Source: a virus. Taken from it: a stretch of DNA of 64,000 bases. The first letter of the stretch is position 1. Every line of letters starts with the position of its first letter. Under the pieces are notes generated by a model that worked only from the letters and a program-made list of their open reading frames with translations, was not told the DNA's origin and searched no databases. This document shows positions 1-32,006 of the stretch, piece after piece. Location of the stretch: the IMG/VR virus record IMGVR_UViG_3300029305_000264, positions 32,001 to 96,000 of that record, one strand, 5' to 3'. A program made the translations under genes and the position numbers.

Positions 1-63
1 AACATACAAACTTGCACATAATGCGATTTTTAAATACTGGCGGTGTTCTAGGGCTTTATAGCC

Positions 64-1497
64 TTAGAAACGCCAGTGTATTTGTATATCTTCCCCATCA
101 ATAACGATGTGGTCTATCAGTTCAGATATTGCCGTGTGTGTCGCGTAGCAGTCACCCGATTCTACCACACTTTCGAAAGCATCAACAACCGAAACGATTT
201 CTTCCTTTGTGATTGTCGGTGCGATTTCTTCGAGGTTTTCCAGTTCAGCTTCCAAGGACCGCTTTTCATCGTTCAGCGGATTCATTTTCGCTTTTACCAC
301 GGATAAATCAATTCCATCCATCGTGTACAAGTCCATCAATTTAGAAACTTGGCTTTCGATTTGTTCAATACGCTTCCGAAGCATCTTTTGCTTCGCGGAT
401 GTATCGACACTTTCCCGAAGTTCTTCGATGTATGCAGGTTCCGATTTCAAACGGCGGATTTCTCCGAAAATGATTTCTTCAAGTTCATAATCGCGGTAAG
501 TCTTATTTTTGCAATTCGGATTTTTCACTAATTTCGGATCGCTTTTAGACCTGCTATAACAAATATAATATCCGCGTTTCTTTCCCCATTTATCCCTTCC
601 GTTTGTTCTCCAATGGTATTTTGCCGTACAGCATCCGCACCATATCATGCCGCCGATGGGCGTTTTGTACCGTTTCCCCGGTTTGTACTTCTCGTTTTCC
701 TTGTCGCGTTCTGCCATAAGAGCCACGGCGCGTTCATAAGTCTTTTCGTCAATAAATCCATCGTGCAAGCCTTCGTATACTTTGCCCTTGTGGACTATCT
801 TTCCGATGTATATAGGATTCAGAATCAATTCCCGGATTGTTTGTCCTTGCCATTCTCCGTACTTGGTGCGATATCCTTTATCGTTCATAATCTTTGCGAT
901 TGAGTTTACCGGGGTGCGGCGCAGGAATAGATTATAAACTTCCTTTACCTGTTCCGCTTCGTATTCGTTTATTATGAGTTCTTCCGTTTCCTTATCGTAC
1001 CGGAAGCCGATAGGCACATTTCCGCCGCCTTTGTATTTACCTTCCTTGGCGCGCCCTTCTTTACCGTCAATCATTCTTTCCTTGATTCGGGAGCGTTCTA
1101 ATTCCGCAAAAACTGCGAGGATGCCCACCATAGCTTTTCCGAATGCGCTTGATGTATCGAATGATTCTGCCCTTGAAACAAAAGCCACATTCTGCGGTTC
1201 GAAAATCTTTTGAATCATATATAGGGTGTCAAATTGGCTTCGGGAAAGTCGGTCCAATTTATCAACAAGAATCATATCCGGGTGCAGTTTTGCGATTTCT
1301 TTAAGCATTTGTTTTAATGCCGGACGGTCCATAGTTCCGCCGGAATGCCCATCTTCAATATATACTTTGATAACTTCATATCCCATAGCTTCACAGTATT
1401 TTTGTAACCGATCCACTTGTTGCGGTATGGAGTAGCCTTCTTCGACTTGCAAAAGCGTTGATACACGCACATATATAAATACTCTTTTTTTCTGCAT
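64..1497 (-). CDS. int: Large serine recombinase (prophage 1 integrase)
   Basis: 477 aa. N-terminal resolvase motifs (VFIYVRVSTLLQ, DRLSRS), recombinase domain, Cys-rich zinc ribbon and C-terminal coiled coil. Clear paralogue of 39638-41149. Confidence 0.9.
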   Translation of the reverse strand: MQKKRVFIYVRVSTLLQVEEGYSIPQQVDRLQKYCEAMGYEVIKVYIEDGHSGGTMDRPALKQMLKEIAKLHPDMILVDKLDRLSRSQFDTLYMIQKIFEPQNVAFVSRAESFDTSSAFGKAMVGILAVFAELERSRIKERMIDGKEGRAKEGKYKGGGNVPIGFRYDKETEELIINEYEAEQVKEVYNLFLRRTPVNSIAKIMNDKGYRTKYGEWQGQTIRELILNPIYIGKIVHKGKVYEGLHDGFIDEKTYERAVALMAERDKENEKYKPGKRYKTPIGGMIWCGCCTAKYHWRTNGRDKWGKKRGYYICYSRSKSDPKLVKNPNCKNKTYRDYELEEIIFGEIRRLKSEPAYIEELRESVDTSAKQKMLRKRIEQIESQVSKLMDLYTMDGIDLSVVKAKMNPLNDEKRSLEAELENLEEIAPTITKEEIVSVVDAFESVVESGDCYATHTAISELIDHIVIDGEDIQIHWRF

Positions 1498-1565
1498 GAT
1501 TTTTTTCTCCCTTATGTTCTAATATGGTTCTATGGTGCATACATTTTTACTGTGAATTATTTCCA

Positions 1566-1594
1566 TTTACTTTTAAATATTTTGTGAATATAAT
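1566..1594 (+). promoter_or_regulatory. Candidate sigma-A promoter for micro-ORF 1647
   Basis: TTTACT, 17 bp spacer, TATAAT (1589-1594). Confidence 0.3.
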
Positions 1595-1646
1595 GTTTTT
1601 GATGATTTCAGAACATTCGTTCCGTCCCCGGCGAAAGGAGCCTGCC

Positions 1647-1745
1647 ATGAAAGAAGAATACATACAAAAAATTGTTGAATTACTTGAAAGGTGCAACGAC
1701 ATTCCGCTTCTTGATTTAATCCTCAAATTACTTCAAAAAAGCTGA
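1647..1745 (+). CDS. 32-aa helical micro-protein, convergent with the repressor gene
   Basis: ATG preceded by GGAG. Sequence MKEEYIQKIVELLERCNDIPLLDLILKLLQKS. A positional and pattern counterpart lies at 41290-41391. Its 3' end overlaps the repressor 3' end by 18 nt. Confidence 0.4.
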   Translation: MKEEYIQKIVELLERCNDIPLLDLILKLLQKS

Positions 1746-2108
1746 TAGCATTTGCCGGACTGCGGCGAACTTCGTTTCATCCAATGAATGCAAATCTTCC
1801 ACAACAGACATAAAATCCGAATCCATCCGCAGGCGAACCACGATATCCGCAAGGGCATTGTTTTCTGCCTGCATTTTTTTATGTTCTTCGCTTTTTTCTT
1901 CTATCAAATCCGATTTTAATATCCCGAAATAGTTTGCAAGTATTTCTATCTTATCTATCCGGGGATATTTCTTCGCTTTGATCCAATCGTTGAAAGTGGA
2001 TGCCGCAACACCTGCCACTTCCGCCACTTCCTTTTGTGTCTTTCCCGATATCCTCACATAATACGCGAGGTTCTTTGCCATTGTTTCTTTATTTCCTATG
2101 TTACTCAT
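1728..2108 (-). CDS. XRE-family CI-like repressor
   Basis: 126 aa with HTH KTQKEVAEVAGVAASTFNDWIK. AGGGAG RBS. Divergent from the cro-like gene across the operator region. Confidence 0.8.
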   Translation of the reverse strand: MSNIGNKETMAKNLAYYVRISGKTQKEVAEVAGVAASTFNDWIKAKKYPRIDKIEILANYFGILKSDLIEEKSEEHKKMQAENNALADIVVRLRMDSDFMSVVEDLHSLDETKFAAVRQMLSAFLK

Positions 2109-2149
2109 ATAATCACTCCCTTCTTTTGTGGGTAATTATATATTACACC

Positions 2150-2254
2150 AAATTCGCCCTAAAGTAAATTATTTTTTGAAAAAAATTCGCTAAAAGTGTT
2201 GACAAAATTATTTTAATATAGTATTATCATTCTTGGAAATTCGCTTAAAGCGAA
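2150..2254. promoter_or_regulatory. Three operator-like repeats (AAATTCGC..TAAAG)
   Basis: Copies at 2150-2164, 2183-2196 and 2237-2250. The third extends to the palindrome TTCGCTT-A-AAGCGAA (2240-2254), just downstream of the -10. Confidence 0.5.
2199..2227 (+). promoter_or_regulatory. Early rightward promoter
   Basis: TTGACA (2199-2204), 17 bp spacer, TATTAT (2222-2227), upstream of the cro-like gene. Confidence 0.6.
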
Positions 2255-2278
2255 AAACGAAAGGGGGTGCATCATAGT

Positions 2279-2485
2279 ATGCCGAAAATTACACTGAAAG
2301 CCGCAAGGGTAAACGCAGGACTTACACAAAAGGAAGCGGCAAAGAGAATCAATGTAAGCAATAAAACGCTTTGTAATTGGGAAAGCGGAGCATCAATGCC
2401 GAAGGTTGATAAGATTGATGCTATTTGCGATTTGTACAATATCGCATACGATAACATTATTTTTTTACCTAGCAATTCGCTTTAA
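2279..2485 (+). CDS. Cro-like XRE HTH protein
   Basis: 68 aa from ATG 2279 (AAGGGGG RBS 11 nt upstream). HTH LTQKEAAKRINVSNKTLCNWE. Confidence 0.75.
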   Translation: MPKITLKAARVNAGLTQKEAAKRINVSNKTLCNWESGASMPKVDKIDAICDLYNIAYDNIIFLPSNSL

Positions 2486-2502
2486 GCGGATTTAAAGCGA
2501 AT
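2475..2502. promoter_or_regulatory. Perfect 11-bp inverted repeat carrying the operator half-site
   Basis: ATTCGCTTTAA, GCGGAT spacer, TTAAAGCGAAT. It overlaps the cro stop codon. Confidence 0.5.
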
Positions 2503-2520
2503 AAGGAAGGAGCAGGCGGC

Positions 2521-2685
2521 ATGGTTTATCACCACTTAAAGGATGGAACAATCACGAAAGACATTAGCGGAGTGACGGTGCCGCGAGAGATTACAGAAAG
2601 ACTTATTGACATTGCAAGGAATGCAAGAAAGGAGTGCAAAGATGGGAAAGGAAATGACACTTGCGGAAGCAGTAAGAAAGAATGA
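2521..2685 (+). CDS. Small hypothetical protein (54 aa)
   Basis: ATG after GGAAGGAG. MVYHHLKDGTITKDISGVTVPREITERLIDIA.. aligns with the prophage 2 ORF 42152-42310. Confidence 0.4.
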   Translation: MVYHHLKDGTITKDISGVTVPREITERLIDIARNARKECKDGKGNDTCGSSKKE

Positions 2686-2985: not shown

Positions 2986-3102
2986 GGCATGAAAGGAGTA
3001 TATAAGGAATGATTCCCGACAATTACCGATGCGATGGGCAAATGAGCATTTTTGACTATTTACCGCAAAAGCAGCCAAGCGTTACGGAGAAAGGAGCAGA
3101 CG

Positions 3103-3673: not shown

Positions 3674-4134
3674 TGAATTTATTTGAGATTGATGCGGCAA
3701 TCCTTGATTGCGTGGATGTAGAAACCGGAGAGGTATTCGATGTGGACCGCTTCGAGGAACTGGAATTGACAAGGGAAGCGAAGATCGAGAATATCTGCCT
3801 TTGGATAAAGAACCTTAAAGCCGAAGCGGAAGCGTTAAAGGCGGAAAAGGATGCCTTTGCACAGCGGCAGAAGGCGGCGGAAAACAAGATGGAGAGTTTG
3901 AAGCGGTATATCTCCGGATATCTTGACGGAACGGCATTCGAGAGTGCGAAGGTAAAGGTTTCTTTTAGAAAGTCAGAATCTTTGGAAATTTCAGATGTAT
4001 ATAGAATCCCGGAAGATTTCTTGAAGTATCAAGAACCGTCCGTGGATAAGGCGGCATTGAAGAAGGCAATCAAGGATGGCGCAGCTATTGAGGGCGCGGA
4101 GATTGTCGAGAATTACAACATTCAGATTAAGTAA
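3673..4134 (+). CDS. Siphovirus Gp157-like protein
   Basis: 153 aa. N-terminal MNLFEID..L......TGE followed by a coiled-coil segment, as in the Gp157 family. Sits directly before the annealing-protein gene. Confidence 0.55.
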   Translation: MNLFEIDAAILDCVDVETGEVFDVDRFEELELTREAKIENICLWIKNLKAEAEALKAEKDAFAQRQKAAENKMESLKRYISGYLDGTAFESAKVKVSFRKSESLEISDVYRIPEDFLKYQEPSVDKAALKKAIKDGAAIEGAEIVENYNIQIK

Positions 4135-4147
4135 AGGGGGCGGCATT

Positions 4148-4672
4148 ATGGATTTGAAGTTTAGAACACTGAATGCAAACGAGATTGATTGCCGGGTGGC
4201 AACCATCAATCAGAAGGGCTTATCACTTCTTTTGTATAAGGATGCGCGAGTAGATCAGAACATTCTTGATGAAACAGTCGGTCCTATGAACTGGCAACGG
4301 CACCACAGCCGCGACAATGCAAACTGCACCGTTGCCCTTTGGGATGAAGATAAGCGGCAGTGGATAGAGAAGGAAGATACCGGAAAGGAATCTTTCACCG
4401 AAGCTGAAAAGGGGCTTGCATCCGATTCCTTCAAGCGTGCCTGCTTTAATTGGGGCATCGGGCGTGAATTGTATTCCGCACCGTTTATATGGATTTCTGC
4501 CGAAAACGCGGATATCAAACAGGGCGGAAGCGGCAAGTACCAGTGCTACGACAAATTCGCGGTGGAGCAGATTCTTTATGACGAAAGCAGGAACATTGTT
4601 GCACTGTCTATCAAGAACACATCCAAAGGGAAAAGGGTGTTTTTGATGGATAACAGGAAGAAGGATGCGTGA
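4148..4672 (+). CDS. Rad52/Sak-like single-strand annealing protein
   Basis: Motifs YKDARVDQNILDETVGPMNWQ and SDSFKRACFNWGIGRELY match the Rad52_Rad22 pattern (recalled). Confidence 0.6.
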   Translation: MDLKFRTLNANEIDCRVATINQKGLSLLLYKDARVDQNILDETVGPMNWQRHHSRDNANCTVALWDEDKRQWIEKEDTGKESFTEAEKGLASDSFKRACFNWGIGRELYSAPFIWISAENADIKQGGSGKYQCYDKFAVEQILYDESRNIVALSIKNTSKGKRVFLMDNRKKDA

Positions 4673-5217
4673 TGGAGTTTACCGGAAAATTAGTCGGCAT
4701 CACGAAGAACTGGCAAACAGACAAGTTCCAAATCACCTTCACGGTGAACGAGCATTCTGCAATCCAAGCGGCAAATGATATCCAATCATGTGAACGGTTG
4801 AGTATCCGCGCTGTGAAGCACCGGGCGAAGCGGTCCTTGGATGCAAACGCTTTATTGTGGGTATGCCTTGGAAAGATTGCGGATGCAATGGAAACACCCA
4901 CGGACAAATGGGAAATATACCTGCGGATGCTTAAACGGTATGGGAAGTATACGCATATTTGCGTGAAACCGAATGTTGTTGATGCGGTAAAGGCGCAATG
5001 GCGCGAATGCGAAGTGATCGGGGAAGTGAACATAAACGGACAGAAAGCGGTTCAGATGCTTTGCTATTTCGGAAGCAGTACATACGATACAAAGGAGTTC
5101 AGCCGCCTTCTTGATGGCGTGATTTCCGAAATGCAGGAAATGAAACTTGAAACGCCTGCATCCGAGGATATGCGCCGGGCGTTGGAACAATGGGAGAAAA
5201 TGAGCAATGGAAATTAG
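4672..5217 (+). CDS. NinB/Orf-like recombination mediator
   Basis: KRSLDANALLWVCLGKIA resembles lambda NinB RSLDQNRKLWACLGDV. TGATG start overlap. Confidence 0.45.
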   Translation: MEFTGKLVGITKNWQTDKFQITFTVNEHSAIQAANDIQSCERLSIRAVKHRAKRSLDANALLWVCLGKIADAMETPTDKWEIYLRMLKRYGKYTHICVKPNVVDAVKAQWRECEVIGEVNINGQKAVQMLCYFGSSTYDTKEFSRLLDGVISEMQEMKLETPASEDMRRALEQWEKMSNGN

Positions 5218-5656
5218 ACCAATTACATTTAGAGAAGCGTGCGATTTTATCAATAAGCACCATAGACACCATAAAGCAACGGTTGGATGCAAGTTTTCAT
5301 TAGGGCTGTATAAAGAAGAAAAATTAGTTGGTTGCGCTGTGTGCGGCAGACCTGTATCAAGGCACTTTGATAATGGAATCACTTGCGAGATTAACAGACT
5401 ATGCACGGACGGAACATATAATGCCTGTTCTATGCTGTATGGGGCTTGTTGCAGGGTTGCAAAAGAAATGGGTTACACGAAAATCATTACATATATTCTC
5501 GAAAGCGAGAATGGCGCAAGTTTGAAGGCAAGTGGCTTTATATGCGAAGGGAAAGCAGGCGGAACACACTGGACCGGAAAACGAAACAGAGGGCAAGAGA
5601 TACCAAGTGAATTTAAAACAAGATGGGTTCGCATTCTTAGAAAGGGCGAACAATGA
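5207..5656 (+). CDS. Small GNAT-fold-like protein (XF1762-family-like)
   Basis: 149 aa. Contains FINKHHRHHK, GRPVSRHFDNG, CTDGTYNACSMLYGA and GYTKIITY. Family name recalled, not searched. Confidence 0.45.
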   Translation: MEIRPITFREACDFINKHHRHHKATVGCKFSLGLYKEEKLVGCAVCGRPVSRHFDNGITCEINRLCTDGTYNACSMLYGACCRVAKEMGYTKIITYILESENGASLKASGFICEGKAGGTHWTGKRNRGQEIPSEFKTRWVRILRKGEQ

Positions 5657-5940: not shown

Positions 5941-6088
5941 GCCCACAACAGCTTGATACAAACCGTCTGCAAGCTGTTTGGAATATGCACCACTTCTGAT
6001 TTTGCATATCACATCCGGTGCATTTGGTTCTACAAAACTATTCAAATCTCCCTACGGCTGTCAACCGTGGGGAGAGAAAGGAGAAAAC

Positions 6089-6691
6089 ATGAATCCCAAC
6101 ATTGCAAGGGTTAAGGCAATAGAGAAAAAGAACAAGGAAAGATTGCGCGCGATCAATCCGGCACTGGATGAAGGAAGCGGAATATACTTCCTGCTTCGGA
6201 ATGACGAAAGCGGCATCCGGTACGCATATATCGGGCAGGCGAAGCATATTTTGACACGCCTTGCACAGCATCTTGTCGGATATCAGCATATCGACTTGTC
6301 ACTGAAAAAGCGCGGATTGTTTGCGGAAGGCAATCCCTGCGGTTGGAAAGTTTGTGCAATGCACTTCCCGGAATCACAGCTTGACGAAAAGGAACAGCAC
6401 TACATACAGAAATACGCTTTAAACGGTTATCAGCTTTTAAATAAGACCGCAGGCGGACAAGGGGAAGGGAAATCACAGATTCACGAATACAAGCCTTCTA
6501 AGGGGTATAGAGAGGGTTTAAAGCAGGGGTACAAAAACGCAAGCCGGGAGATTTCGAATCTATTTGAAAAACATTTGAATGTATCACGGAAAAGTGAGAA
6601 ACCGAACAAAACACAGGAAAAGGCACTTTTGAAATTCAATGATTTTTTGAATTTTCATAAGGTGGAAAGTGAGGAGCCGGAAAATGATTAA
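6089..6691 (+). CDS. GIY-YIG nuclease-domain protein
   Basis: GIYFLLRN..IRYAYIGQAKHILTRLAQH followed by E..YI.KY..GY.LLNKT. GGAGA RBS. Confidence 0.6.
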   Translation: MNPNIARVKAIEKKNKERLRAINPALDEGSGIYFLLRNDESGIRYAYIGQAKHILTRLAQHLVGYQHIDLSLKKRGLFAEGNPCGWKVCAMHFPESQLDEKEQHYIQKYALNGYQLLNKTAGGQGEGKSQIHEYKPSKGYREGLKQGYKNASREISNLFEKHLNVSRKSEKPNKTQEKALLKFNDFLNFHKVESEEPEND

Positions 6692-9688: not shown

Positions 9689-10204
9689 ATGTTTAAAGTT
9701 GGTGAAGAAGTTTTAATCAGATCAAAGGTATTAGAAGTAAATCCGGCAAACTTGACCTATGATTGCGAAATTGGAATCGGAGGAAGAAGATATGGCTACG
9801 AAATTCCGGCAGAGTGCATTGTTTTTACAGACAAAACCTATTCTGACGGTTTGAACGATGCGTGGGAGTTGGCGAAGAAGATTTACGACACAACACACGC
9901 AGATAGAAACAAAATATTCGGTATGGATAATTCTTGTAACGGAATAAAGAATGTGTTCGATATGTTCAAACCGGAAGAAGCCCTTGCCAAAATCGAAGCC
10001 TATGAGAAGGAAAAGGAAATCAAGGTGGGGGATGTGGTAGAGGATGAAGAAGGAACAAAGGCACTTGTCATTGACGAAGCCACAGAAAACACTTGCTTTG
10101 TTTTTACGGAAAACGGATGTGTTGAGGATTGGTACAAAATGGATTTGAAAAAGACCGGAAATAAAATTTCGATTGAATCATTGCTTCGGCAGATTGGAGA
10201 GTGA
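9689..10204 (+). CDS. Hypothetical protein
   Basis: 171-aa ORF from ATG 9689 with GGAGAG RBS. Confidence 0.5.
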   Translation: MFKVGEEVLIRSKVLEVNPANLTYDCEIGIGGRRYGYEIPAECIVFTDKTYSDGLNDAWELAKKIYDTTHADRNKIFGMDNSCNGIKNVFDMFKPEEALAKIEAYEKEKEIKVGDVVEDEEGTKALVIDEATENTCFVFTENGCVEDWYKMDLKKTGNKISIESLLRQIGE

Positions 10205-11911: not shown

Positions 11912-11940
11912 GGTAATTTCATGACCGGGATATTATAATG
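11912..11940 (+). promoter_or_regulatory. Candidate late promoter (weak -35)
   Basis: TGGTAA, 17 bp spacer, TATAAT (11935-11940). Aligns with 51845-51873 in prophage 2 (shared AAAAGTTG and GATATTAT blocks). Confidence 0.35.
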
Positions 11941-11967
11941 TATAATGTAAGAAAGGTAAACAAAATA

Positions 11968-12417
11968 ATGTATAGCATATACAAAATTACAAACGATGTG
12001 AACGGAAAGGTTTACATCGGAAAAACGATGAAGCCGATTGATGCAAGGTGGAAGCAACATTGCTACAATGTGAAAACGATTCACAGATTCAAATTGCAAG
12101 AAGCAATAGAGAAGTACGGCGAAATGAATTTCACCATTGAAAAGATTGACGAAGCGGCAACGAACGAAGAAGCCTGCGAAAAGGAAATCTTTTGGATAAA
12201 GCACTACGACAGTATATATCCAAACGGATATAATTGCACAAAGGGCGGCACACACAGCGGCGGATGCCGGAAAGTAAAGAATGTTGAAACCGGAGAGGTT
12301 TTCGACACAATGACAGAAGCCGCAAAAAAGTACAATCGGCGCATACGCGCCATTGAACAGGTTCTTGATAAACCGCACCGAACAAGTGCAGGTTGTCATT
12401 GGATAACAATTACATAA
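11968..12417 (+). CDS. GIY-YIG homing endonuclease (I-TevI-like)
   Basis: MYSIYKITNDVNGKVYIGKT...R...H...E..WI..Y....NGYN, then a C-terminal DNA-binding-like region. Absent at the equivalent site of prophage 2. Confidence 0.75.
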   Translation: MYSIYKITNDVNGKVYIGKTMKPIDARWKQHCYNVKTIHRFKLQEAIEKYGEMNFTIEKIDEAATNEEACEKEIFWIKHYDSIYPNGYNCTKGGTHSGGCRKVKNVETGEVFDTMTEAAKKYNRRIRAIEQVLDKPHRTSAGCHWITIT

Positions 12418-12966: not shown

Positions 12967-14199
12967 ATGGATATTGATATCAACATGAACGCCTGCTTCG
13001 AGGAAGTGGATGATAGCAAGAAGCGGTATATAGTGATGAAGGGCAGTGCAGGTTCCGGGAAATCGGTTGATACTGCCATGAATTATATTTTGAGAATGAT
13101 GCAGGACAAGGGCAGGAACCTTGTGTGCATCCGTAAATCAGATATTACAAACCGTGACAGCACCTATGCAGAGTTGACAGGTGCTGTTTATCGGATGTTT
13201 GGAGCGCAGGCGGATAAATATTGGGATATAAAGCAAAGCCCATTGCAGCTTACTTGCAAGGCGAACGGAAACAAGATAATCTTCCGGGGCGTGAACGATG
13301 AGAAGCAACGAGAGAAGCTGAAATCTATCACCTTCCAAAAGGGCAAACTTACAGATGTATGGATAGAGGAAGCAACGGAAATCACGCAGGCAGACTTCGA
13401 AATAATAGACGATAGATTGCGTGGCGAACTTCCGCCGGGGCAGTTCTATCAAATACGATTGACTTTCAATCCGGTAAACAAGAATCACTGGATAAAGAAA
13501 GTCTTTTTTGATATTCCGGACGAAAATGTGCTTACACACCACAGCACATATCTAACAAATAGATTCATAGACGATGCGTACCGGGCGCGAATGGAACGAA
13601 GAAAGGTTGTCGATCCGGAAGGATATCAAATCTATGGATTGGGAGAATGGGGCGAAATTGGCGGTTTGATACTCCATAATTGGGAAGTCAAAGAGATTTC
13701 GCAGAATCCGGCAGATTACGATGATTTCGCAATCGGGCAGGACTTCGGATTCAACCATGCAAACGCAATTCTCCCGGTTGGATGGAAAGACGGTGATTTG
13801 TACATCACCAAAGAAATCTATGAGTTTGAAAAGGACACTTCGGAACTGATTGCCATTGCGGAGCAGATGGAGATACCGAAGAACCGGGAAATGTGGTGCG
13901 ATAGCGCGGAGCCGGACAGAATCAAGATGTGGAAGAAAGCAGGCTTCCGGGCAAAGGGCGTTGATAAGGGCGGTTCCGCAGGTTCCGTCAAGGCGCAAAT
14001 TGATTGGCTTAAACAGCGGAAAATATATGTGCATCCTTCCTGCACGAATACCATTAAGGAATTGCAACAGTGGAAATGGAAGAAGGATGAAAAGACCGGG
14101 GAATATTACGATGAGCCAGTATCGTTCCAAGACGATGCAATGGCGGCGTTGCGATATGTTCCGGAACGATGGAGAAAGCAAAAAGGTTGGCTTGTATAG
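12967..14199 (+). CDS. terL: Terminase large subunit (PBSX-like)
   Basis: 410 aa. Walker A KGSAGSGKS and a C-terminal nuclease region. ~80-85% identical to 52484-53719. Confidence 0.9.
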   Translation: MDIDINMNACFEEVDDSKKRYIVMKGSAGSGKSVDTAMNYILRMMQDKGRNLVCIRKSDITNRDSTYAELTGAVYRMFGAQADKYWDIKQSPLQLTCKANGNKIIFRGVNDEKQREKLKSITFQKGKLTDVWIEEATEITQADFEIIDDRLRGELPPGQFYQIRLTFNPVNKNHWIKKVFFDIPDENVLTHHSTYLTNRFIDDAYRARMERRKVVDPEGYQIYGLGEWGEIGGLILHNWEVKEISQNPADYDDFAIGQDFGFNHANAILPVGWKDGDLYITKEIYEFEKDTSELIAIAEQMEIPKNREMWCDSAEPDRIKMWKKAGFRAKGVDKGGSAGSVKAQIDWLKQRKIYVHPSCTNTIKELQQWKWKKDEKTGEYYDEPVSFQDDAMAALRYVPERWRKQKGWLV

Positions 14200-22969: not shown

Positions 22970-22983
22970 GATATATCAAATTG

Positions 22984-23277: not shown

Positions 23278-23287
23278 GAAAATGCTT

Positions 23288-25291
23288 ATGGAATTGTTTA
23301 AGTTATTGGGAACAATAGCAATAGACAATACAGAAGCGAACAACGCACTGGAAGGCACCACACAAAAGGCGCATGAATCCGCAAACGAAACCGAATCCGC
23401 CTTTTCAAAAATCGGCGGTGTTGCGAAGAATATTGCAATCGGCATCGGGGCGGCAGGGCTTGCCATTGGCGGTGCATTTGTCGGTGCGGTAGAAAGTACA
23501 AGAGAGTACAGGGCGGAAATGAACCTGCTTGATGCGGCATTTCAGACAGCAGGACACAGTTCCAAAGCCGCAAAGGACACCTATTCAGAACTTAACGCCG
23601 TGCTTGGAGATTCCGGGCAGGCGGTGGAAGCATCACAGCATCTTGCATTGATTGCGGACAACGAAAAGGAACTGTCCGATCTAACAGGTATTTTGACCGG
23701 AGTATATGCCACTTTCGGAGAATCGTTGCCGTTGGAAGGACTTGCAGAGGGCATCAATCATTCTGCATCCCTTGGAGAAGTGCAAGGAAGCCTTGCGGAT
23801 GCCTTGGAATGGTCCGGAATCACGGTTGAGGATTTCAACGATAAGTTGGCGAAGCTGAAAACCGAGGAAGAACGGCAGGATTTGATTGTAAAGACCTTAA
23901 AAGGCACTTACAGCGAAGCATCCGTGCAGTACAAAGAAACCAACAAGGATATCATGGAATCCCGGAAGGCGCAGGAACGCTTATCGGATGCAATGGCGAA
24001 GGTTGGTGAAATCGGGGAACCGATAATGACAGCACTTCGGAATGCGATTGCATCACTTGCAGAAAAGGCAATCCCGGTCCTTGAAGATATGGTGAATTGG
24101 TTCCGTGATGCTATCACATGGATAAAGCAGAACGAAGAAACCGTGCAAACATGGGTTGGCGTTATTATAGGCGCAACAACGGCAATCGGTGCCTTCGTTT
24201 TAATTATTTCATGGGGAAAGATAATGACCGCAGCGGCAAACGCCGTGAAGGTTGTTAGAACTGCCATGATTGCCTTTAATGCGGTATTGATGGCAAATCC
24301 TATTGGCTTGGTTGTGGCGGCTGTTGTGGGGCTTGTGGCGGCGTTTATTTACCTTTGGAACAATGTCGATGGCTTCCGGAACTTTTGGAAATCCGCATGG
24401 AACACGATAAAATCCCTTGCAAATTCCGCATGGAAGGCAATCCGGAAATACTTTTCGGATGCGTGGGCGGCTATTAAGAAAACATGGTCCGCGGTGACAG
24501 GGTACTTCCGGGGGATATGGAACGGAATCAAGTCTACTTTTAATTCTGTGAAATCGTGGTTTTCCCAAATTTTCCGGAACGCATGGAACGGTGTCAAGTC
24601 TATATGGAATGGAGCGCGTTCTTTCTTCTCCGGAATATGGTCCGGCATCCGTGGCGTTTTTGGTTCGGTTGCATCGTGGTTCCGCAATACCTTCCGGAAC
24701 GCATGGAACAATATCAAATCCGCTTTCAGCAGTTGGGGTTCCTTCTTCTCCGGGCTTTGGGGCAAGGTGAAAAGCAAATTCGGTTCAATCGGAACTTCCA
24801 TCGGAAACGCAATGGGAAATGCCGTGAAAAAAGGAATGAATGGTGCCTTATCCTTGGTGGAAGGTGCTATCAATAAGGGAATTGGACTGATAAACAGTGC
24901 AATCCGCCTTGCAAACAAACTTCCGGGAATCAATGTCGGAACCGTGTCGAAAATCTCCCTTCCGCGCCTTGCAAAAGGTGGTGTACTGGAGAAAGGGCAA
25001 GTCGGCATCTTAGAGGGTTCCGGTGCGGAAGCTGTTGTGCCGTTGGAAAACAACCGGGCATGGCTTTCCAATGTTGCGGAAGATTTGAACGAGTTACAAA
25101 GAACAGAAACAAAGCCGGGAAATGATGCGGATATCATTACCCGGATGAACAGAATAATTGCTTTGCTTGAAAATCTATTCGGTATGCAAATCCGGCTTGA
25201 TAGCGGCGCATTGGTTGGCGAATTGGCACCTGCGGTTGATGCAAGGCTTGGAAGGATGTACCGGACAGCAAGCAGAGGAAACGCACGATAA
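23288..25291 (+). CDS. Tape measure protein 1
   Basis: MELFKLLGTIAIDNTEAN.., coiled coils, a hydrophobic segment, W/F periodic repeats, and C-terminal KGGVLEKGQVGILEGSGAEAVVPL. Confidence 0.8.
   Translation: MELFKLLGTIAIDNTEANNALEGTTQKAHESANETESAFSKIGGVAKNIAIGIGAAGLAIGGAFVGAVESTREYRAEMNLLDAAFQTAGHSSKAAKDTYSELNAVLGDSGQAVEASQHLALIADNEKELSDLTGILTGVYATFGESLPLEGLAEGINHSASLGEVQGSLADALEWSGITVEDFNDKLAKLKTEEERQDLIVKTLKGTYSEASVQYKETNKDIMESRKAQERLSDAMAKVGEIGEPIMTALRNAIASLAEKAIPVLEDMVNWFRDAITWIKQNEETVQTWVGVIIGATTAIGAFVLIISWGKIMTAAANAVKVVRTAMIAFNAVLMANPIGLVVAAVVGLVAAFIYLWNNVDGFRNFWKSAWNTIKSLANSAWKAIRKYFSDAWAAIKKTWSAVTGYFRGIWNGIKSTFNSVKSWFSQIFRNAWNGVKSIWNGARSFFSGIWSGIRGVFGSVASWFRNTFRNAWNNIKSAFSSWGSFFSGLWGKVKSKFGSIGTSIGNAMGNAVKKGMNGALSLVEGAINKGIGLINSAIRLANKLPGINVGTVSKISLPRLAKGGVLEKGQVGILEGSGAEAVVPLENNRAWLSNVAEDLNELQRTETKPGNDADIITRMNRIIALLENLFGMQIRLDSGALVGELAPAVDARLGRMYRTASRGNAR
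24361..24800 (+). repeat. Coding quasi-periodic repeats in TMP1 (aromatic 7/11 spacing)
   Basis: FRNFWKSAWNTIKS..AWKAIRKYF..WNGIKSTF..WNGVKSIW.. Reiterated tggaa/atcaa DNA motifs. Confidence 0.6.
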
Positions 25292-25298
25292 ACGCACG

Positions 25299-25322
25299 GA
25301 AACACACGCCGTGTGTTTTTTA
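25299..25322 (+). terminator. Intrinsic terminator between the two TMP genes
   Basis: AAACACAC, GCC loop, GTGTGTTT, then TTTT. No equivalent in prophage 2. Confidence 0.5.
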
Positions 25323-25349
25323 ATGAACAAAAGAAGGGGGTGAATCCCT
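25322..25349 (+). promoter_or_regulatory. 28-nt block identical in both prophages (SD hairpin / 6-codon uORF)
   Basis: AATGAACAAAAGAAGGGGGTGAATCCCT is identical to 63513-63540. Contains ATG AAC AAA AGA AGG GGG TGA and an AAGGG/CCCTT stem. Confidence 0.45.
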
Positions 25350-25350
25350 T

Positions 25351-27636
25351 ATGGAACTTTTTAGGCTACTTGGAACGGTAGCTATTGACAACAGCGGAGC
25401 GAATGCAGCTATTGATGAAACTGTCGATAAGGCAGAAAAATCGCATGGGAAAATCGGATCGGCATTTGGCAAAGTCGGTTCAGCGGCGGTGAAAGTCGGA
25501 AAGACCGTTGCCGCAGGGCTTGCGGCAGGTGGCGCGGCGGTTGTGGCACTTACCAAAAGTGCATTGGATGGATATGCAGACTATGAACAGCTTGTAGGCG
25601 GTGTAGAAACGCTTTTCAAGAACAGCGGAGAAACGGTACTAAAATATGCGGAAAACGCATATAAAACAGCCGGAATGTCCGCGAATGAGTACATGGAAAC
25701 CGTCACATCCTTTTCTGCATCCTTGATTCAGAGTTTGGACGGTGACACAGCAAAGGCGGCAGAAAAGGCGAATTTGGCAATCACGGATATGTCCGACAAT
25801 GCAAACAAGATGGGAACGAGCATGGAAAGCATCCAAAATGCTTATCAAGGCTTCGCAAAGCAGAACTACACCATGCTTGACAATTTAAAGTTGGGCTACG
25901 GCGGAACCAAGGAAGAAATGCAACGCCTTCTTCGGGATGCGCAGGCAATCTCCGGGATTGAATACGACATTTCCAGTTATGCGGATGTAGTAGATGCAAT
26001 CCATGTAATACAAACGGAAATTGGTATCACAGGAACCACGGCGAAGGAAGCAAGTTCCACAATCTCCGGTTCTATTTCGTCCATGAAATCCGCATGGAAA
26101 AACCTTGTCGCAGGATTGGGAAATGAAAATGCCGATATTGGCGGATTGCTTGACCTATTCAGCGAAAGTGCAATCACCGTGGCAGGCAATGTGATTCCGA
26201 GGGTAGAAATAATCTTGAAAAAGATTGTCGAATTGATACCGAAATTGGCACCGAAAATCGCAAAAGCTATCCCGAAATTGATTTCTTCGTTATTGCCCAC
26301 GGTTATTTCTGCGGCGGTGTCCTTGATAGGAAGCCTTGCAGATGCGCTTCCGGATATTCTTGGAGCATTGATTGATGTTCTTCCGCTTTTTATTGATGGG
26401 GCAATGAAGATATTTGAAGCAATCGTTGGTGCGCTTCCGCAGTTGATGGAAATGCTATGCGATGCCCTGCCGGGACTGATTGAGGGCATAGTCGATTCCG
26501 GAATTATTACTTCCTTGATTGATTGTGCAGTGCAGTTGACATTGGCACTGATTGAAGCATTGCCGGATATTATTCAGCTTATTGTCGAGCAGCTTCCGAA
26601 GATTTTATCACAGATTGCCGAAGGGCTTGCGGCGGCGTTCCCGGTATTACTGGAAGCCGTGACCGGGCTTTTTGCGCAAATTTGGAACATGATTGCAGGC
26701 GGATTGCTTGGAACGGAAGCCACCTTCGAAGAATCCTTCGTTAACATCGAAGGGCTTTTCACCGGGCTTTGGGATGTGCTTTCCACAACATGGGAAACAT
26801 TAGGTGCGCCGATTTGGGAACTGATTCAATCCTGCGTTGGCACCGTGCGTGATGTATTTTCCGAGAAGATGCCGGAAATCAAGGAATTTGTTTCGGGCTG
26901 TTTTTCTGATATCGGTGTAATTTGGGAAGAACACTTGAAGCCGTGCTTTGAAGCAATCGGCAAATTCATTGATGAAGTCTTGGCACCTGTATTCGAAGAA
27001 GTGTTTACAAACTTCATCGGTCCGGCGGTTGATACTTGTTTCGAACATATCAAGAATATGTGGGAAAACACCTTAAAGCCTTGTCTTACCGGAATTATTG
27101 ACTTTATCACCGCAGTTTTCACCGGAGATTGGGAGAAGGCTTGGCAGGCGTTGGTTGACTTTGTGACAGGCATTTTTGAAGGCTTGGTAACGGCAGTAAA
27201 AACGCCTATCAATCTCATTATTGATGCGGTGAATGCGCTGATTGGCGGATTGAACAAATTACAGATTCCGGATTGGGTTCCGGAAATAGGCGGCAAGGGC
27301 ATCAACATTCCGCTGATTCCGAAACTGGAGCGCGGCGGCATCCTTGAAAAAGGGCAGGTTGGATTCCTTGAAGGAAACGGCGCAGAAGCGGTTGTTCCGT
27401 TAGATCAGAACGAAAAGTGGATTGGCAGGGTTGCGCAGGATATGGCAATGCAGGGCATCGGCGGCGGAATTGATTATGACCGTCTTTCCTATGCGGTTGT
27501 TGAAGCTATCCGCGAGGTAATACCGGAATTGCAGAATACACAGAGAATCGAAACGGACGAAAGCGGCATTTTCCGTGTAGTGCGTGACAGAGCGCGTGAA
27601 TACACACAGAAAACCGGGAATCCGGCGTTTGCGTAA
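25351..27636 (+). CDS. Tape measure protein 2 (TMP paralogue)
   Basis: MELFRLLGTVAIDNSGAN.., a TMP core-like region (..MSANEYMETV..NLKLGYGGTKEEMQRLL), ALP-rich helical repeats, and C-terminal RGGILEKGQVGFLEGNGAEAVVPL. Confidence 0.75.
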   Translation: MELFRLLGTVAIDNSGANAAIDETVDKAEKSHGKIGSAFGKVGSAAVKVGKTVAAGLAAGGAAVVALTKSALDGYADYEQLVGGVETLFKNSGETVLKYAENAYKTAGMSANEYMETVTSFSASLIQSLDGDTAKAAEKANLAITDMSDNANKMGTSMESIQNAYQGFAKQNYTMLDNLKLGYGGTKEEMQRLLRDAQAISGIEYDISSYADVVDAIHVIQTEIGITGTTAKEASSTISGSISSMKSAWKNLVAGLGNENADIGGLLDLFSESAITVAGNVIPRVEIILKKIVELIPKLAPKIAKAIPKLISSLLPTVISAAVSLIGSLADALPDILGALIDVLPLFIDGAMKIFEAIVGALPQLMEMLCDALPGLIEGIVDSGIITSLIDCAVQLTLALIEALPDIIQLIVEQLPKILSQIAEGLAAAFPVLLEAVTGLFAQIWNMIAGGLLGTEATFEESFVNIEGLFTGLWDVLSTTWETLGAPIWELIQSCVGTVRDVFSEKMPEIKEFVSGCFSDIGVIWEEHLKPCFEAIGKFIDEVLAPVFEEVFTNFIGPAVDTCFEHIKNMWENTLKPCLTGIIDFITAVFTGDWEKAWQALVDFVTGIFEGLVTAVKTPINLIIDAVNALIGGLNKLQIPDWVPEIGGKGINIPLIPKLERGGILEKGQVGFLEGNGAEAVVPLDQNEKWIGRVAQDMAMQGIGGGIDYDRLSYAVVEAIREVIPELQNTQRIETDESGIFRVVRDRAREYTQKTGNPAFA

Positions 27637-27647
27637 GGGGGTTCAGT

Positions 27648-28022
27648 ATGTATCAAGGTTATAGAATCAAAGTCAATGGAACCATCATTAGTGATTTTAT
27701 GATTAAGCGCGGAAGCTATAATTCCATGCCGAAAAGCCGCGTACTTGCATCCTATTACGATGCCGCAGGCAATCCGCATGAGGAATTAAGCCCGGTAAAG
27801 AAGATGGAAATAAATTTCACCATCCGGGAACATGACATGGAAGAACATCTTGCGATTATGTCTGCATTTCCGGAACGCAATGTATTTGTGGAATATTGGA
27901 ACGACACAACCGGAGCATATGCAACAGGTGTTTTCCGTGTGGAAGATATGAAAACACCACACAAGCACGCCGCAGGCGGAATCCGGTATGGTGAAATCCT
28001 TGTTAAGTTAAAGGAGAATTGA
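27648..28022 (+). CDS. Small tail-tip protein (Dit-position, not classic Dit)
   Basis: 124 aa. Immediately follows the TMP. Function assigned by position only. Confidence 0.4.
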   Translation: MYQGYRIKVNGTIISDFMIKRGSYNSMPKSRVLASYYDAAGNPHEELSPVKKMEINFTIREHDMEEHLAIMSAFPERNVFVEYWNDTTGAYATGVFRVEDMKTPHKHAAGGIRYGEILVKLKEN

Positions 28023-28024
28023 CG

Positions 28025-29905
28025 ATGGCAGATACAAAAGAATTTAAGGAACTTTTCAATCAGTCGGGCATTGCCAAAAGACTGATTATCCATTTCCCGA
28101 ATCTTTCTGTCACGCTTCGCAACGAAGATATTGTATCGGAAAGCATGGAAATCTCCGAAAGCCTTTGTTCGGAACCGGAACTTCGTTTCGGTTCCTGCGA
28201 AGCATCGGTATTTAAGCTGCGCATCATTGGCAATGTGATTCCGCTTATCGGGGAAACCTTTACGGTGTCAATGTATGTCGGGGATATTGTGGAACCTTTT
28301 GTGCTTGGCACCTATAAGGTAACATCCGACAAACCGACAGCAGACAGACGATTCCGGGATATTGTGGCGCATGATGCCATGTACGATATCATCAAAGCGG
28401 ATGTGGCGGCATGGTATAACAGCATTCTTCCGAAAGAGGACAGCACAATCACCCTTCGGGAGTTCCGCGATTCCTTCATGGAGCATTTTGGCGTGGAGCA
28501 GGAAGAAATCACCCTGCCAAATGATGAAATGGTTGTGGAGCGTACTATTGATCCGAAAGTGTTAAGTGGAAAAGATGTGCTTTCGGCTATTTGCGAAATC
28601 AACGGATGCTTCGGGCATATCGGGCGGAGTGGAAAGATGCAGTATGTCGTGCTTGAAGAATTTGTGGCAGGGCTTTTCCCTTCGAACGAATTATTCCCGG
28701 CGGAAGATTTGTTTCCTTCCGGTACCGAAACCATATCCGCGCATTACTACAAGGAATGCAAGTACGAAGATTACACCACAAAGCGAATCGGGAAACTGCA
28801 AATCCGGCAGGAAGAAAACGATATCGGGTGCATCATCGGCAATGGTGAGAATTGCTATATCGTTGAAGATAATTTCCTTGTGTATGGCAAGGATGCGGCG
28901 GCACTGGAAGCAATCGGGCAGAAGCTATTTGACATTATCAGTGTTTTATGGTATCGCCCGGCAAGAGTAACAGCAATCGGCAATCCGTGCATGGAAGTCG
29001 GAAGCGGAATCCGCATAGTGACACAGCGGCAAATCGTGGAAACCTACATTTTGGAGCGCACATTGAAGGGCATACAGGCGTTGTTTGACACCTACGATGC
29101 AAACGGCGAAGAAACCTATTCCGACAATGTAAATTCGGTGCAACAGTCCATTTTGCAGTTGAAGGGAAAGACCAACATCCTTTCCCGGACGGTGGAAGAA
29201 ACGAAATCCCGGATTGAGGATGTAAACAAAGGGTTGAGTTCTGAAATAAAGCAGACTGCGGATGCCATAAATCTATCTGTGGAAGATTTGGCGAATAATA
29301 CTGCATCGAGCATCACGGAACTTTCGGATCAGATTTCCCTTCGCGTTACCGCAGGCGAAGTAGATACCATGATTGACATTGCGTTGAATGAAATTACTAT
29401 CACAGCAGGGCAAATCAATCTTGATGGCTATGTTTCGGCAGGCGGCGGAAATTTCTCCATTGATGCAAACGGAAATCTTAAAATCAAAAACTCTTATCAT
29501 ACTGTTGAGATAGGGGATTCCGGTATTGAGGTTACTGCAAGCAATGGAAATGAAATTATTTACGGTTCCCATGCTGTTTGGTTTAGAAGTGGCGGAAATA
29601 CCGTTTCTCGAATTGAACTATACAACAATCAGCTTCGAGTTGTAACGCCGGGAACAGGCGGTTTTTATGTGGATGGGTACCGTGTTTTGACAACCAATGA
29701 TTCTATTTCCGCATCGGTTTCGTTGAATAGCGCAAATACAACCATTTCATATACCACTATCGGAAACATCAATATTATGTCCGCGAATGGTTATCAAGCG
29801 GAAAGTGGTTATAAGTACGGCAATATTGCAAGTACAGGTTGGGTGCAGGGAAAGATTGCGGTAATCAATGAAAGATTGGAAGCACTTGAAGCAAAGGTGG
29901 TGTAA
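28025..29905 (+). CDS. Tail-associated (Tal-position) structural protein
   Basis: ~626 aa from ATG 28025 (AAGGAG RBS). The N terminus resembles tail-tip hub proteins. Mid coiled coil and beta-rich C terminus. Confidence 0.5.
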   Translation: MADTKEFKELFNQSGIAKRLIIHFPNLSVTLRNEDIVSESMEISESLCSEPELRFGSCEASVFKLRIIGNVIPLIGETFTVSMYVGDIVEPFVLGTYKVTSDKPTADRRFRDIVAHDAMYDIIKADVAAWYNSILPKEDSTITLREFRDSFMEHFGVEQEEITLPNDEMVVERTIDPKVLSGKDVLSAICEINGCFGHIGRSGKMQYVVLEEFVAGLFPSNELFPAEDLFPSGTETISAHYYKECKYEDYTTKRIGKLQIRQEENDIGCIIGNGENCYIVEDNFLVYGKDAAALEAIGQKLFDIISVLWYRPARVTAIGNPCMEVGSGIRIVTQRQIVETYILERTLKGIQALFDTYDANGEETYSDNVNSVQQSILQLKGKTNILSRTVEETKSRIEDVNKGLSSEIKQTADAINLSVEDLANNTASSITELSDQISLRVTAGEVDTMIDIALNEITITAGQINLDGYVSAGGGNFSIDANGNLKIKNSYHTVEIGDSGIEVTASNGNEIIYGSHAVWFRSGGNTVSRIELYNNQLRVVTPGTGGFYVDGYRVLTTNDSISASVSLNSANTTISYTTIGNINIMSANGYQAESGYKYGNIASTGWVQGKIAVINERLEALEAKVV

Positions 29906-29908
29906 GGC

Positions 29909-30106
29909 ATGGGAATCAACACAGCAACGAAGAAGTTTCAAGAGGATTTGGTGAACACGATAAATAAAAGCGGCTTGCCGCCCTGTATAGTCGAAATGGT
30001 AGTGGAAAACACCCTTGCGGCAGTGCGGCGGCAGGTTGCAATAGCTTTGCAGACGGAAGCGGAAAGCGAGGTGGCAAAAGATGCAGAAAGCGTACAGGCG
30101 GATTGA
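29909..30106 (+). CDS. Hypothetical protein
   Basis: 65-aa ORF in the tail operon. Confidence 0.4.
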   Translation: MGINTATKKFQEDLVNTINKSGLPPCIVEMVVENTLAAVRRQVAIALQTEAESEVAKDAESVQAD

Positions 30107-30491
30107 ATGGGAAAACTATCCTTCCGGGAAAACGCCATTGAACGAAACAAACATGAACAAGATGGATGCCGCGATTGATGAACTGGATAATCGCATAATC
30201 GAACTTGATTTGAATATGCAGGCACCCATCACGGAAGCGGCGGCAAGTGCGGCAAATGCGCAGGCATCGGCAAATGCCGCGGCAGGAAGTGCAAGCGCGG
30301 CGGCGGCAAGTGAAAACAAGGCAAAGGCAAGTGAAGAAGTGTGTGTGGATGCCTTGGAAGAAGTCCGGCAGATAACACACAACACACAATTTGCTGTGAA
30401 CTTTACAACCGGGAATTTGGAATACAATGCACCGAAGTATGTGTTCGCAGTAAATAACCAAAGCGGAAATCTCGAATGGGGGGTGCGATAA
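30081..30491 (+). CDS. Tail-fibre N-terminal-like protein
   Basis: W.NYPSGKTPLNETNMNKMDAAIDELD motif typical of fibre N termini, followed by an Ala-rich coiled segment. Confidence 0.45.
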   Translation: MQKAYRRIEWENYPSGKTPLNETNMNKMDAAIDELDNRIIELDLNMQAPITEAAASAANAQASANAAAGSASAAAASENKAKASEEVCVDALEEVRQITHNTQFAVNFTTGNLEYNAPKYVFAVNNQSGNLEWGVR

Positions 30492-31165
30492 TGGAAAACG
30501 CAGGAAGAATTTTATTGATGCCGAAGGGTGACTATTCGGCATCCACTACATACGCAATGCTTGATATTGTAAACCATTCCGGGGCATCGTGGGTATGCAA
30601 GCAGGCTTGCACCGGGCAGACACCATCGGACAGCAACACAGCATATTGGCAGAGGTTAGGAATAGCGGTTGACCTTGCGAACTACTTACCGCTTGTTAAT
30701 AGTGCGACAATGGAAGTCAAGACTGCACAAGCGGCAACATTAACCTTAAACAATACAAATCCAACACATGGAGTAAATTACGTTCAGTATAAGAGTACGG
30801 TTGGCGATATGGGTTATTTGGGCTTTTCTGCAATCAACAACCCTGCATTTATGAGTACAGGTGGTGTAGTAAGTGACCTTCTCCACACTGGCAACAAGCC
30901 TACTGGCACTTACACTGGAAATGGTAGTGCTACGGCAAGAACTGTAAAAGTCGGTGGAGTTGGTAACTGTATCATGGTTAGAAGGGTTAGTTCGGAAGAT
31001 TTTGCAATCGTAACAGAAAGCGGATATATCGGAAGAAAGGGTGGTGTGGTAGTTACTGGCTCAGATGCGTATTGGACGAGAGATGGTGGAGGAAATTTGT
31101 ATATGGCTACAACATCGGAACTGTTTAATGCTAGTGGCGGAAGCTATTATTATGAGCTGTTATAA
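30491..31165 (+). CDS. Tail fibre / receptor-binding-like protein
   Basis: PKGDYSASTTYAMLDIVNHSGASWVCKQ...P......YWQRL motif common in fibre proteins. TAATG coupling. Confidence 0.45.
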   Translation: MENAGRILLMPKGDYSASTTYAMLDIVNHSGASWVCKQACTGQTPSDSNTAYWQRLGIAVDLANYLPLVNSATMEVKTAQAATLTLNNTNPTHGVNYVQYKSTVGDMGYLGFSAINNPAFMSTGGVVSDLLHTGNKPTGTYTGNGSATARTVKVGGVGNCIMVRRVSSEDFAIVTESGYIGRKGGVVVTGSDAYWTRDGGGNLYMATTSELFNASGGSYYYELL

Positions 31166-31179
31166 GAAAGGAGCATACC

Positions 31180-31557
31180 ATGAGCGAAATCTTAGAAAAT
31201 ATCGAAACTCCGATTGAGGAAGAAATCGTTGAAATTCCGCAGAGGGTAAATCCTTTCTGTGTTATTTCCAAGGGAACTACGGGAGAGTATGCGGTGAGGG
31301 ACATTCAGACTAATTCCGCATGGAGTGAAAATCCGTATGAAGATTATGCGGTTGTTCCCGATGATATGGTTGCAGATATTCTTGAAACGAAAGGGTTCTG
31401 TGACATTGTACTGAATGAGGACGGAACTGAGGTTGTGGAGTTTACTCCGAGAGAGATTCCGGAGATTCCGACACCGGAACCCGAAACACCGTCTTCCGAC
31501 AGTAACGTGTGGGATGAAATGGCACTCGCAATCGAGGAAGGGGTGAATGAGGTATGA
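31180..31557 (+). CDS. Hypothetical acidic protein
   Basis: 125-aa ORF with AAGGAG RBS. Confidence 0.45.
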   Translation: MSEILENIETPIEEEIVEIPQRVNPFCVISKGTTGEYAVRDIQTNSAWSENPYEDYAVVPDDMVADILETKGFCDIVLNEDGTEVVEFTPREIPEIPTPEPETPSSDSNVWDEMALAIEEGVNEV

Positions 31558-32006
31558 CAAGCAAAGATTTTGTGTTAGACACCATGCGAAAGTATGGAAG
31601 AAAAGTTGCAGAGGAATTGCAGGAGAAAGCAGAGAGTATGACCGGAACCGAACTGTATGAAGAATATGGTTTCATTCCTTCTTTCTATGCAGCATGTGCA
31701 AAGTGCAATATGCTTGATCGTCCGGTGGGTTTTGTGTGTCGTTCTCCGCAGGGCAGAGTTGTGAAGCTGTTGCAGCCGTATGACAGCACTGTATTCACAG
31801 CGGAACCGGAAGATTTGCCTGCACAGTGGGGATTCAAGTGGTCACAGGATCCGAAACACGCACTTCCGTATGTGGCAATTTCCACAAGTCCTTATGGCAC
31901 AGGGGATTGTTGCACCGAAGATGATGTTGTATATCGTTCCTTGATTGACAACAATGTTTGGAAGCCTTCTGAATATCCGCAGGGATGGGAAGCAGTAACG
32001 GAATAA
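31554..32006 (+). CDS. Hypothetical protein
   Basis: 150-aa ORF, ATGA-coupled. The first GGATCC site of the window lies here (31847). Confidence 0.45.
   Translation: MTSKDFVLDTMRKYGRKVAEELQEKAESMTGTELYEEYGFIPSFYAACAKCNMLDRPVGFVCRSPQGRVVKLLQPYDSTVFTAEPEDLPAQWGFKWSQDPKHALPYVAISTSPYGTGDCCTEDDVVYRSLIDNNVWKPSEYPQGWEAVTE

Follow-up and report, generated by a model that had tools for sequence, protein, structure and literature searches.

The 64,000-nucleotide window analyzed here corresponds to bases 32001–96000 of a 114,938-bp virus record in IMG/VR (IMGVR_UViG_3300029305_000264) and contains DNA of two related phage types, denoted L and R, that meet within a pair of tail-fibre-like genes at about 30.35 kb and differ sharply in their content of short, mostly palindromic words, among them GGATCC, the BamHI-type site. 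Positions given without a prefix are those of the window; positions in the complete record are marked "contig". The features on which the analysis relies are the following:

1–30353, part of an L-type phage genome, purged of GATC, GGCC, ACGT, GGATCC, TGATCA, CAATTG, GAATTC, AAGCTT, ATGCAT, CAGCTG and AGATCT
64–1497, minus strand, large serine recombinase (integrase) of L, with the Pfam domains Resolvase, Recombinase and Zn_ribbon_recom
12967–14199, plus strand, terminase large subunit (TerL) of L, without GGATCC
30081–30491 and 30476–31165, plus strand, two small tail-fibre-like genes (weak PHROG tail-fibre matches) with the seam inside
30354–30640, plus strand, seam of about 287 bp, 99–100% identical to contig 24355–24640
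30641–64000, R-type phage DNA, with all 34 GGATCC sites of the window, normal GATC and GGCC, no CGCG, and zero or nearly zero GCGC, GATATC, TGCGCA and TGTACA
32049–32687, plus strand, distal tail protein Dit, R-type
32689–34089, plus strand, tail protein Tal, R-type
39638–41149, minus strand, large serine recombinase (integrase) of R, identified by its Pfam domains
44334–44462, plus strand, internal copy of the terminal repeat of the record
52484–53719, plus strand, TerL of R, with four GGATCC sites

Word content of the L and R lineages

By exact search, GGATCC occurs 34 times in the window, for the first time at position 31847. The original prediction, made by eye, had already noted the absence of this word from the first 31.8 kb, and its list of 33 sites was correct except that the site at 33299 was missed and the one at 54459 was given as 54469. 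Dinucleotide-preserving shuffles of the whole window contain 13.6 ± 3.4 sites and never more than 22, and the chance that all 34 would fall in the right half if randomly placed is about 0.5^34, roughly 1e-10. The step is thus real, but its two sides behave differently once longer words are taken into account. In the left part, 6.1 sites are expected under a first-order Markov model but only 2.3 under an order-3 model (4-mer counts) and 1.2 under an order-4 model (5-mer counts), so that a count of zero is unsurprising given the local scarcity of GATC. In the right part, the 34 sites exceed all three expectations (7.2, 12.2 and 22.3 for first-order, 4-mer and 5-mer counts, respectively). The enrichment on the right, originally put at about 6-fold, therefore shrinks to 4.7-fold relative to dinucleotide composition, 2.9-fold relative to shuffled synonymous codons (64 sites observed in both R copies vs 21.6 expected, z = +10) and about 1.5-fold relative to 5-mer composition, and the same 5-mer approach applied to both R units (from flank counts) yields an expectation of about 45 vs 67 observed. 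Hence, the excess in R is real and amounts to about 1.5–3-fold, depending on the null.

When all 64 hexamer palindromes were counted in both halves of the window, GGATCC turned out to be one of a series of words that are missing from the left part but frequent in the right part (7–34 copies each), the others being TGATCA, CAATTG, GAATTC, AAGCTT, ATGCAT, CAGCTG and AGATCT. The reverse pattern is shown by GATATC, TGCGCA and TGTACA, which are common on the left and zero or nearly so on the right, while TTTAAA drops from 15 to 2 copies. Among the 4-mers, GATC is about 7-fold scarcer on the left, where GGCC is missing altogether; on the right, CGCG is missing and GCGC nearly so. When the complete record is divided into 5-kb bins, CGCG occurs only in an island of L-type DNA (contig 24355–62353) that is flanked on both sides by R-type DNA and also contains most of the GCGC, GATATC and TGCGCA; these four words are all kept in the L genome. 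Over its full 38 kb, the island is devoid of GGCC and of the eight hexamers listed above for the left part, and its GATC is reduced about 7-fold.

These differences persist under a null in which synonymous codons were shuffled within each unit, so that both the proteins and the codon usage are kept (observed/expected):

GATC: L 30/149 (z = −12); R 405/363
GGCC: L 0/57; R 116/79
ACGT: L 1/84; R 17/135
GGATCC: L 0/7.2; R 64/21.6 (z = +10)
CGCG: L 84/101; R 0/50
GCGC: L 108/100; R 13/75
TCGA: L 92/133; R 119/271
TTAA: L 92/169; R 94/371
ATCGAT: L 0/19; R 0/43
CTGCAG: L 0/8.2; R 0/37
GATATC: L 28/18; R 2/36

For the purged words, z ranges from −8 to −14 under nulls of this kind. Summed over the 64 palindromic hexamers, L contains 230 copies vs 500 expected and R 761 vs 1006, with 36 and 29 of the 64, respectively, missing from the coding sequence altogether, and about twenty (at least 19) of these hexamers are purged in L. 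The R genomes are, in addition, strongly depleted of GTAC and purged of TTCGAA; ATCGAT, CTGCAG and CCATGG are absent from L and R alike, and both have lost nearly all CCAGV. The lost words, which also include the 5-mer GACGC, are of the kind recognized by restriction enzymes, that is, short palindromes or Type IIS-like sequences.

The removal of sites from the left part by synonymous changes, which the original prediction had proposed, is borne out by TerL. The L and R proteins are 83% identical in amino acid sequence, and their conserved Gly-Ser-Gly is encoded with GGTTCC in L (GGT TCC GGG) and GGATCC in R; the predicted codon contrast in the Walker A motif is exact, namely, GGC AGT GCA GGT TCC GGG on the left and GGA TCA GCC GGA TCC GGA on the right. 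The four GGATCC sites in the terL gene of R occupy positions where the relatives show several synonymous variants, GGATCC among them.

Selection specifically against a BamHI-type site in the left part, as originally suggested, is a different matter. Broken down by flanking bases, GATC in L is found in 0 of 34 expected RGATCY sites (the class that includes GGATCC), 0 of 7 TGATCA, 0 of 11 CGATCG and 30 of 96 sites of other classes. The complete loss of RGATCY would be compatible with BamHI-type restriction, but all classes of GATC are affected, dozens of unrelated words including GGCC and ACGT are purged as well, and the depletion of GGATCC does not exceed what is predicted from GATC or 5-mers, the expectation from local 4-mers or 5-mers being low to begin with. 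Accordingly, in a Markov chain Monte Carlo (MCMC) sampling of synonymous sequences of L in which GATC was held down, 30% of the samples contained no GGATCC, and when only the non-GATC words were avoided, 8.6 ± 2.5 sites were expected. In L, then, GGATCC has been lost within a nested purge of GATC, which went furthest for RGATCY and the palindromic hexamers. An enzyme like BamHI may have contributed, but nothing singles it out.

The GATC sites remaining in the L genome (1–30353 together with contig 24355–32000) have a pattern of their own: 25 of the 32 are flanked by CG (CGATC or GATCG), none of the 32 lies in a palindromic hexamer, and a similar pattern is seen in G001, an independent L-type contig described below. 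Shielding of the CG-flanked sites by an overlapping modification is one possibility.

Three phage genomes in series

In IMG/VR and by CheckV, the record is listed as a complete (100%) genome with direct terminal repeats (DTR). Comparison of the record with itself reveals, however, three co-linear units of 38.0–38.5 kb each, arranged head-to-tail with the same gene order, and each equipped with its own large serine recombinase, helix-turn-helix repressor, terminase, portal, tape-measure and tail genes. The two R units are 80–95% identical to each other, and the L unit is 67–79% identical to the R units. The L unit starts 7.6 kb to the left of the window and ends at 30353; R-type DNA extends from 30641 to contig 114814 and, wrapping around, over contig 1–24354. 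Because the IMG/VR contigs that carry relatives of TerL, mere fragments left out, are mostly 30–44 kb long, the natural genome size in this family is about 38 kb. Thus, the record consists of three related genomes of about 38 kb in series and is not a single 115-kb genome, although it is listed as such.

The compositional break in the window, which the original prediction placed between about 28.5 and 31.8 kb, lies at about 30.3–31.7 kb, bounded by the last L marker (CGCG at 30296) and the first R marker (GATC at 31716), and the DNA to the right of it does belong to the lineage originally called prophage 2. The seam falls within this interval. It is nearly identical to its counterpart 38 kb upstream, its flanks are only 50–79% identical, and it contains the longest exact repeat of the record (234 bp at 30406–30639, offset 37,999 bp). 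The next longest are a 142-bp repeat at contig 3613/79517 and a 127-bp repeat at contig 76334/114812 (offset 38,478 bp) that overlaps the terminal repeat. The ends of the record overlap by 124–126 bp, and the internal copy of this repeat at 44334–44462 is exact to the end of the record over 127 bp and to its start over 126 bp; judging from the sequence, it is probably a second seam, one that joins two R-type genomes.

The genes at contig 24037–25136, the counterparts of the two tail-fibre-like genes around the seam, match the same tail-fibre family. The equivalent place in the third unit (contig 99820–101589, or 3820–5589 of locus L003) is occupied by a single 589-aa virion structural protein, so that the other two junctions present four small fibre-like genes where the third unit has one large gene.

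The original prediction interpreted the break as a natural mosaic, in which prophage 1 would have acquired its tail-tip B and lysis module from the lineage of prophage 2 while its older part evolved under BamHI-type restriction. An identical 234-bp segment inside tail-fibre genes, a typical point of exchange between phages, speaks for such an event, and the exchange of tail-fibre or host-range modules among temperate phages likewise leaves an identical segment in the fibre genes followed by divergent C-termini. The arrangement here is reciprocal, however: at the junction 38 kb upstream (contig 24355), an R-type tail set A leads into an L-type set B, so that a mosaic origin would call for two reciprocal recombinants next to each other. 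Furthermore, L has a tail end of its own immediately to the left of the window, with L-type Dit and Tal at contig 25907–28136 and, together with a 646-aa tail protein, spanning contig 25.9–30.1 kb. Further discrimination comes from G001, an independent 33-kb contig from another sample that is L-type throughout, including the distal tail and lysis end, and has the same purge profile (33 GATC; no GGATCC, TGATCA, CAATTG, GAATTC, AAGCTT or CAGCTG). In G001, the L head and tail genes (82–89% identity) run directly into the L-type distal-tail stretch (90–94% identity). Given this gene order and the presence of Dit and Tal of L to the left of the window, L is a coherent unit of about 38 kb, and the R-type tail and lysis genes at 30.6–38 kb come from another genome. 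Reciprocity and G001 together point to whole genomes in series rather than to one recombinant, the break being a seam between genomes, and we consider the mosaic scenario, together with its BamHI-type selection, improbable.

Tandemly integrated prophages would be expected to have host DNA and att sites at their flanks and boundaries next to the integrases. In this record, the composition switches 8–9 kb away from the integrases, within the tail module, and the ends of the record overlap; all genes examined are phage genes, the early ones encoding functions of phage replication and recombination, and no host gene was seen among those examined across the record.

Several features are those of concatenation during assembly: the length of the record is a multiple of the genome length typical of the family, the gene order is repeated, and the units join on exact repeats (234 bp and 127 bp) at least as long as the assembler k-mer. 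Junctions of exactly k-mer size that also serve as "DTR" are most likely explained, as far as the sequence goes, by a de Bruijn graph with k = 127 in which the assembly path ran through three co-occurring, related circular genomes with exact repeats in common. In the view of the CheckV authors, IMG/VR genomes that are concatenated probably arose as artefacts of assembly (Nayfach et al. 2020, PMC8116208), and the present record resembles those flagged by CheckV in having about three times the expected genome length, a repeated gene order and a k-mer-sized terminal repeat. Unlike in those cases, the copies here are diverged (67–95% identity), and because of this divergence a check of k-mer multiplicity would not flag the record.

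Alternatively, the circle of three units could be real, a cointegrate or hetero-concatemer produced by homologous recombination between co-resident related phages, which would make the seam biological. Recombination of circles at a shared segment would generate the same structure, with the segment doubled at both junctions, and the phages encode recombination genes of their own (RecT and YqaJ in R, a Rad52-like protein in L). Against this stand the size of 115 kb, three times that of the family genome, the junction repeat of exactly 127 bp that is also the terminal repeat, a signature of a k-mer graph, the lack of host DNA in the record, and the view of IMG/VR concatenations as artefacts (PMC8116208). 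A cointegrate therefore seems unlikely to us, if somewhat less so than the mosaic.

Restriction pressure as the candidate cause

We put at roughly 80% the probability that the record combines two related temperate siphovirus lineages that were differently purged by restriction pressure and were joined likely by assembly. Under this interpretation, L and R would be distinct, related genomes of about 38 kb from temperate siphoviruses of gut or rumen Clostridia, and each lineage would have lost target words of restriction enzymes through synonymous changes, although not the same ones. The L lineage would have been purged of GATC (most completely of RGATCY, TGATCA and CGATCG), GGCC, ACGT and about twenty hexamer palindromes, and the R lineage of CGCG, GCGC, GATATC and TTCGAA, with strong depletion of TCGA, TTAA and GTAC and retention of GATC. 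GGATCC, being a subset of the GATC sites, would then have been lost from L along with them, whereas nothing would keep it out of R, which contains it in moderate excess. We infer that the cause of these differences lies in a past in host strains with different repertoires of Type II restriction-modification systems. The L integrase shares just 53% identity with its R counterpart, a distance that fits a difference in integration site or in host.

Avoidance of restriction sites is an established anti-restriction strategy in double-stranded DNA phages (Rusinov et al. 2018, PMC6286503), and the principle has long been accepted. As in the palindrome avoidance described for such phages, the words lost here are short, mostly palindromic and Type II-like, the losses are synonymous, close relatives differ in the words that are purged, and no phage methyltransferase is needed (PMC6286503). 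What departs from the usual cases is that two lineages with contrasting purge sets occur in one database record, so that a single sample yields two related temperate Clostridia phages with almost complementary sets (GATC and GGCC vs CGCG and GCGC).

A purge without selection on sites can also be envisaged: the differences might reflect how two hosts differ in general in mutation or codon usage, or GATC might be protected by DNA modification in R. The L and R units do differ in GC content, codon usage and the content of CG words, and one R copy contains a gene for a 357-aa protein with a PAPS-reductase domain (42721–43794, plus strand), of a kind sometimes linked to DNA modification. The depletion reported above was obtained, however, under nulls that keep proteins and codon usage, and the losses centre on palindromes and reach exact zeros. 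The PAPS-reductase-like gene occurs in a single unit and hence in one of the two R copies, for which reason we rejected it as a marker of R-type modification; likewise, a phage methyltransferase was rejected as the reason why R keeps GATC because no C5, Dam-type or N6/N4 methyltransferase domain (PF00145, PF02086, PF01555) was found in the record. We regard an origin of the pattern without site selection as highly improbable.

The purge by restriction pressure followed by joining in assembly also has observations that weigh against it. The identity over 234 bp at the seam is equally to be expected from homologous recombination, such that the sequence by itself is no proof of an origin in assembly, and no second contig with either junction was detected by protein search or by exact 32-mer matching. 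The excess of GGATCC in R is not accounted for by avoidance, given that 64 sites were observed vs 29.5 ± 4.6 in MCMC samples in which 118 avoided words were forbidden. In their survey, Rusinov et al. (2018, PMC6286503) found that temperate phages have lost all copies of a site less often; the phages analyzed here are temperate (serine integrase, repressor), yet dozens of words are fully eliminated, which places them toward the strong end of the range. Finally, any link between the purged words and particular enzymes is inferred from the words themselves.

Purge sets also differ within the wider TerL family. The relatives of TerL are found in prophages or contigs of gut and rumen Clostridia, including Ruminococcus, Eubacterium ramulus, Lachnospiraceae and Acutalibacteraceae; the nearest relatives with a named host come from various gut Clostridia and reach at most 84% TerL identity, and no close phage records were found in GenBank. 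About 100 related loci show a broad spectrum of purge sets: four of them (L066, L067, L074 and L076) have no GATC over about 20 kb, CCGG is absent in one (L019), and GGCC, CGCG, GCGC and CCGG are all absent in another (L093), while CGCG is missing from many loci and CAATTG together with GAATTC from a whole subgroup. Once the hosts are known, this family would provide a compact natural series for relating word loss in phages to the restriction-modification repertoires of their hosts.

GGATCC excess, CCAG loss and other genes

In R, GGATCC ranks 13th among the 4096 hexamers, and in the plus-strand genes it is distributed over the three reading frames (22/18/16). The presence of sites in all frames led us to reject a single Gly-Ser codon pair as the source of the excess. 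An origin as a by-product of the avoidance of other words was rejected as well, inasmuch as the constrained synonymous MCMC lifts the expectation from 21.6 to 29.5 only. No longer motif was found around the R sites, and 23 of the 67 overlap with CCGG. Over-represented in R are GGATCC, TGATCA and words containing CCGG.

A further depletion concerns CCAG/CTGG, which has nearly disappeared from both strands in both lineages (R, 23 vs 405 expected; L, 34 vs 160). Of the survivors, almost all those in L and 14 of the 25 in R read CCAGT, and for this reason the avoided word is best described as CCAGV/BCTGG. An excess of CCGG and TCCGGA seems to compensate for this loss (TCTGGA, 0/31). The loss of CCAG/CTGG is shared by G001 and locus L006 and is absent from most relatives. 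The sequence GATCCAGGAA occurs seven times in the R units, where it makes up most of the CCAG sites other than CCAGT; it may encode a recurrent Asp-Pro-Gly motif or be a site under protection.

Directional conversion of CTGG/CCAG to CCGG, by a repair resembling very short patch (VSP) repair, was considered, but the codon data are mixed: CCA before G has been replaced by both CCT and CCG, and NCT before GG mainly by NCC. Neither the excess of GGATCC, TGATCA and words containing CCGG in R nor the loss of the asymmetric CCAGV follows simply from avoidance of palindromic Type II sites, and both might conceivably reflect a host process that creates or protects such words, for example, a methylase-linked directional short-patch mismatch repair, or else a defence system with a short asymmetric target that phages rarely avoid; we consider this rather doubtful.

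The remaining observations concern individual genes. In R, the stretch at 44468–44992 matches no Pfam family. A tRNA-Gly(tcc) is called by ARAGORN inside the portal open reading frame of both R copies (54085–54157, plus strand, and contig 9702–9774); given this location and the lack of an Rfam match there, it is likely a false positive. The L genome contains two genes with GIY-YIG endonuclease domains, at 5978–6691 and 11938–12417, both on the plus strand.

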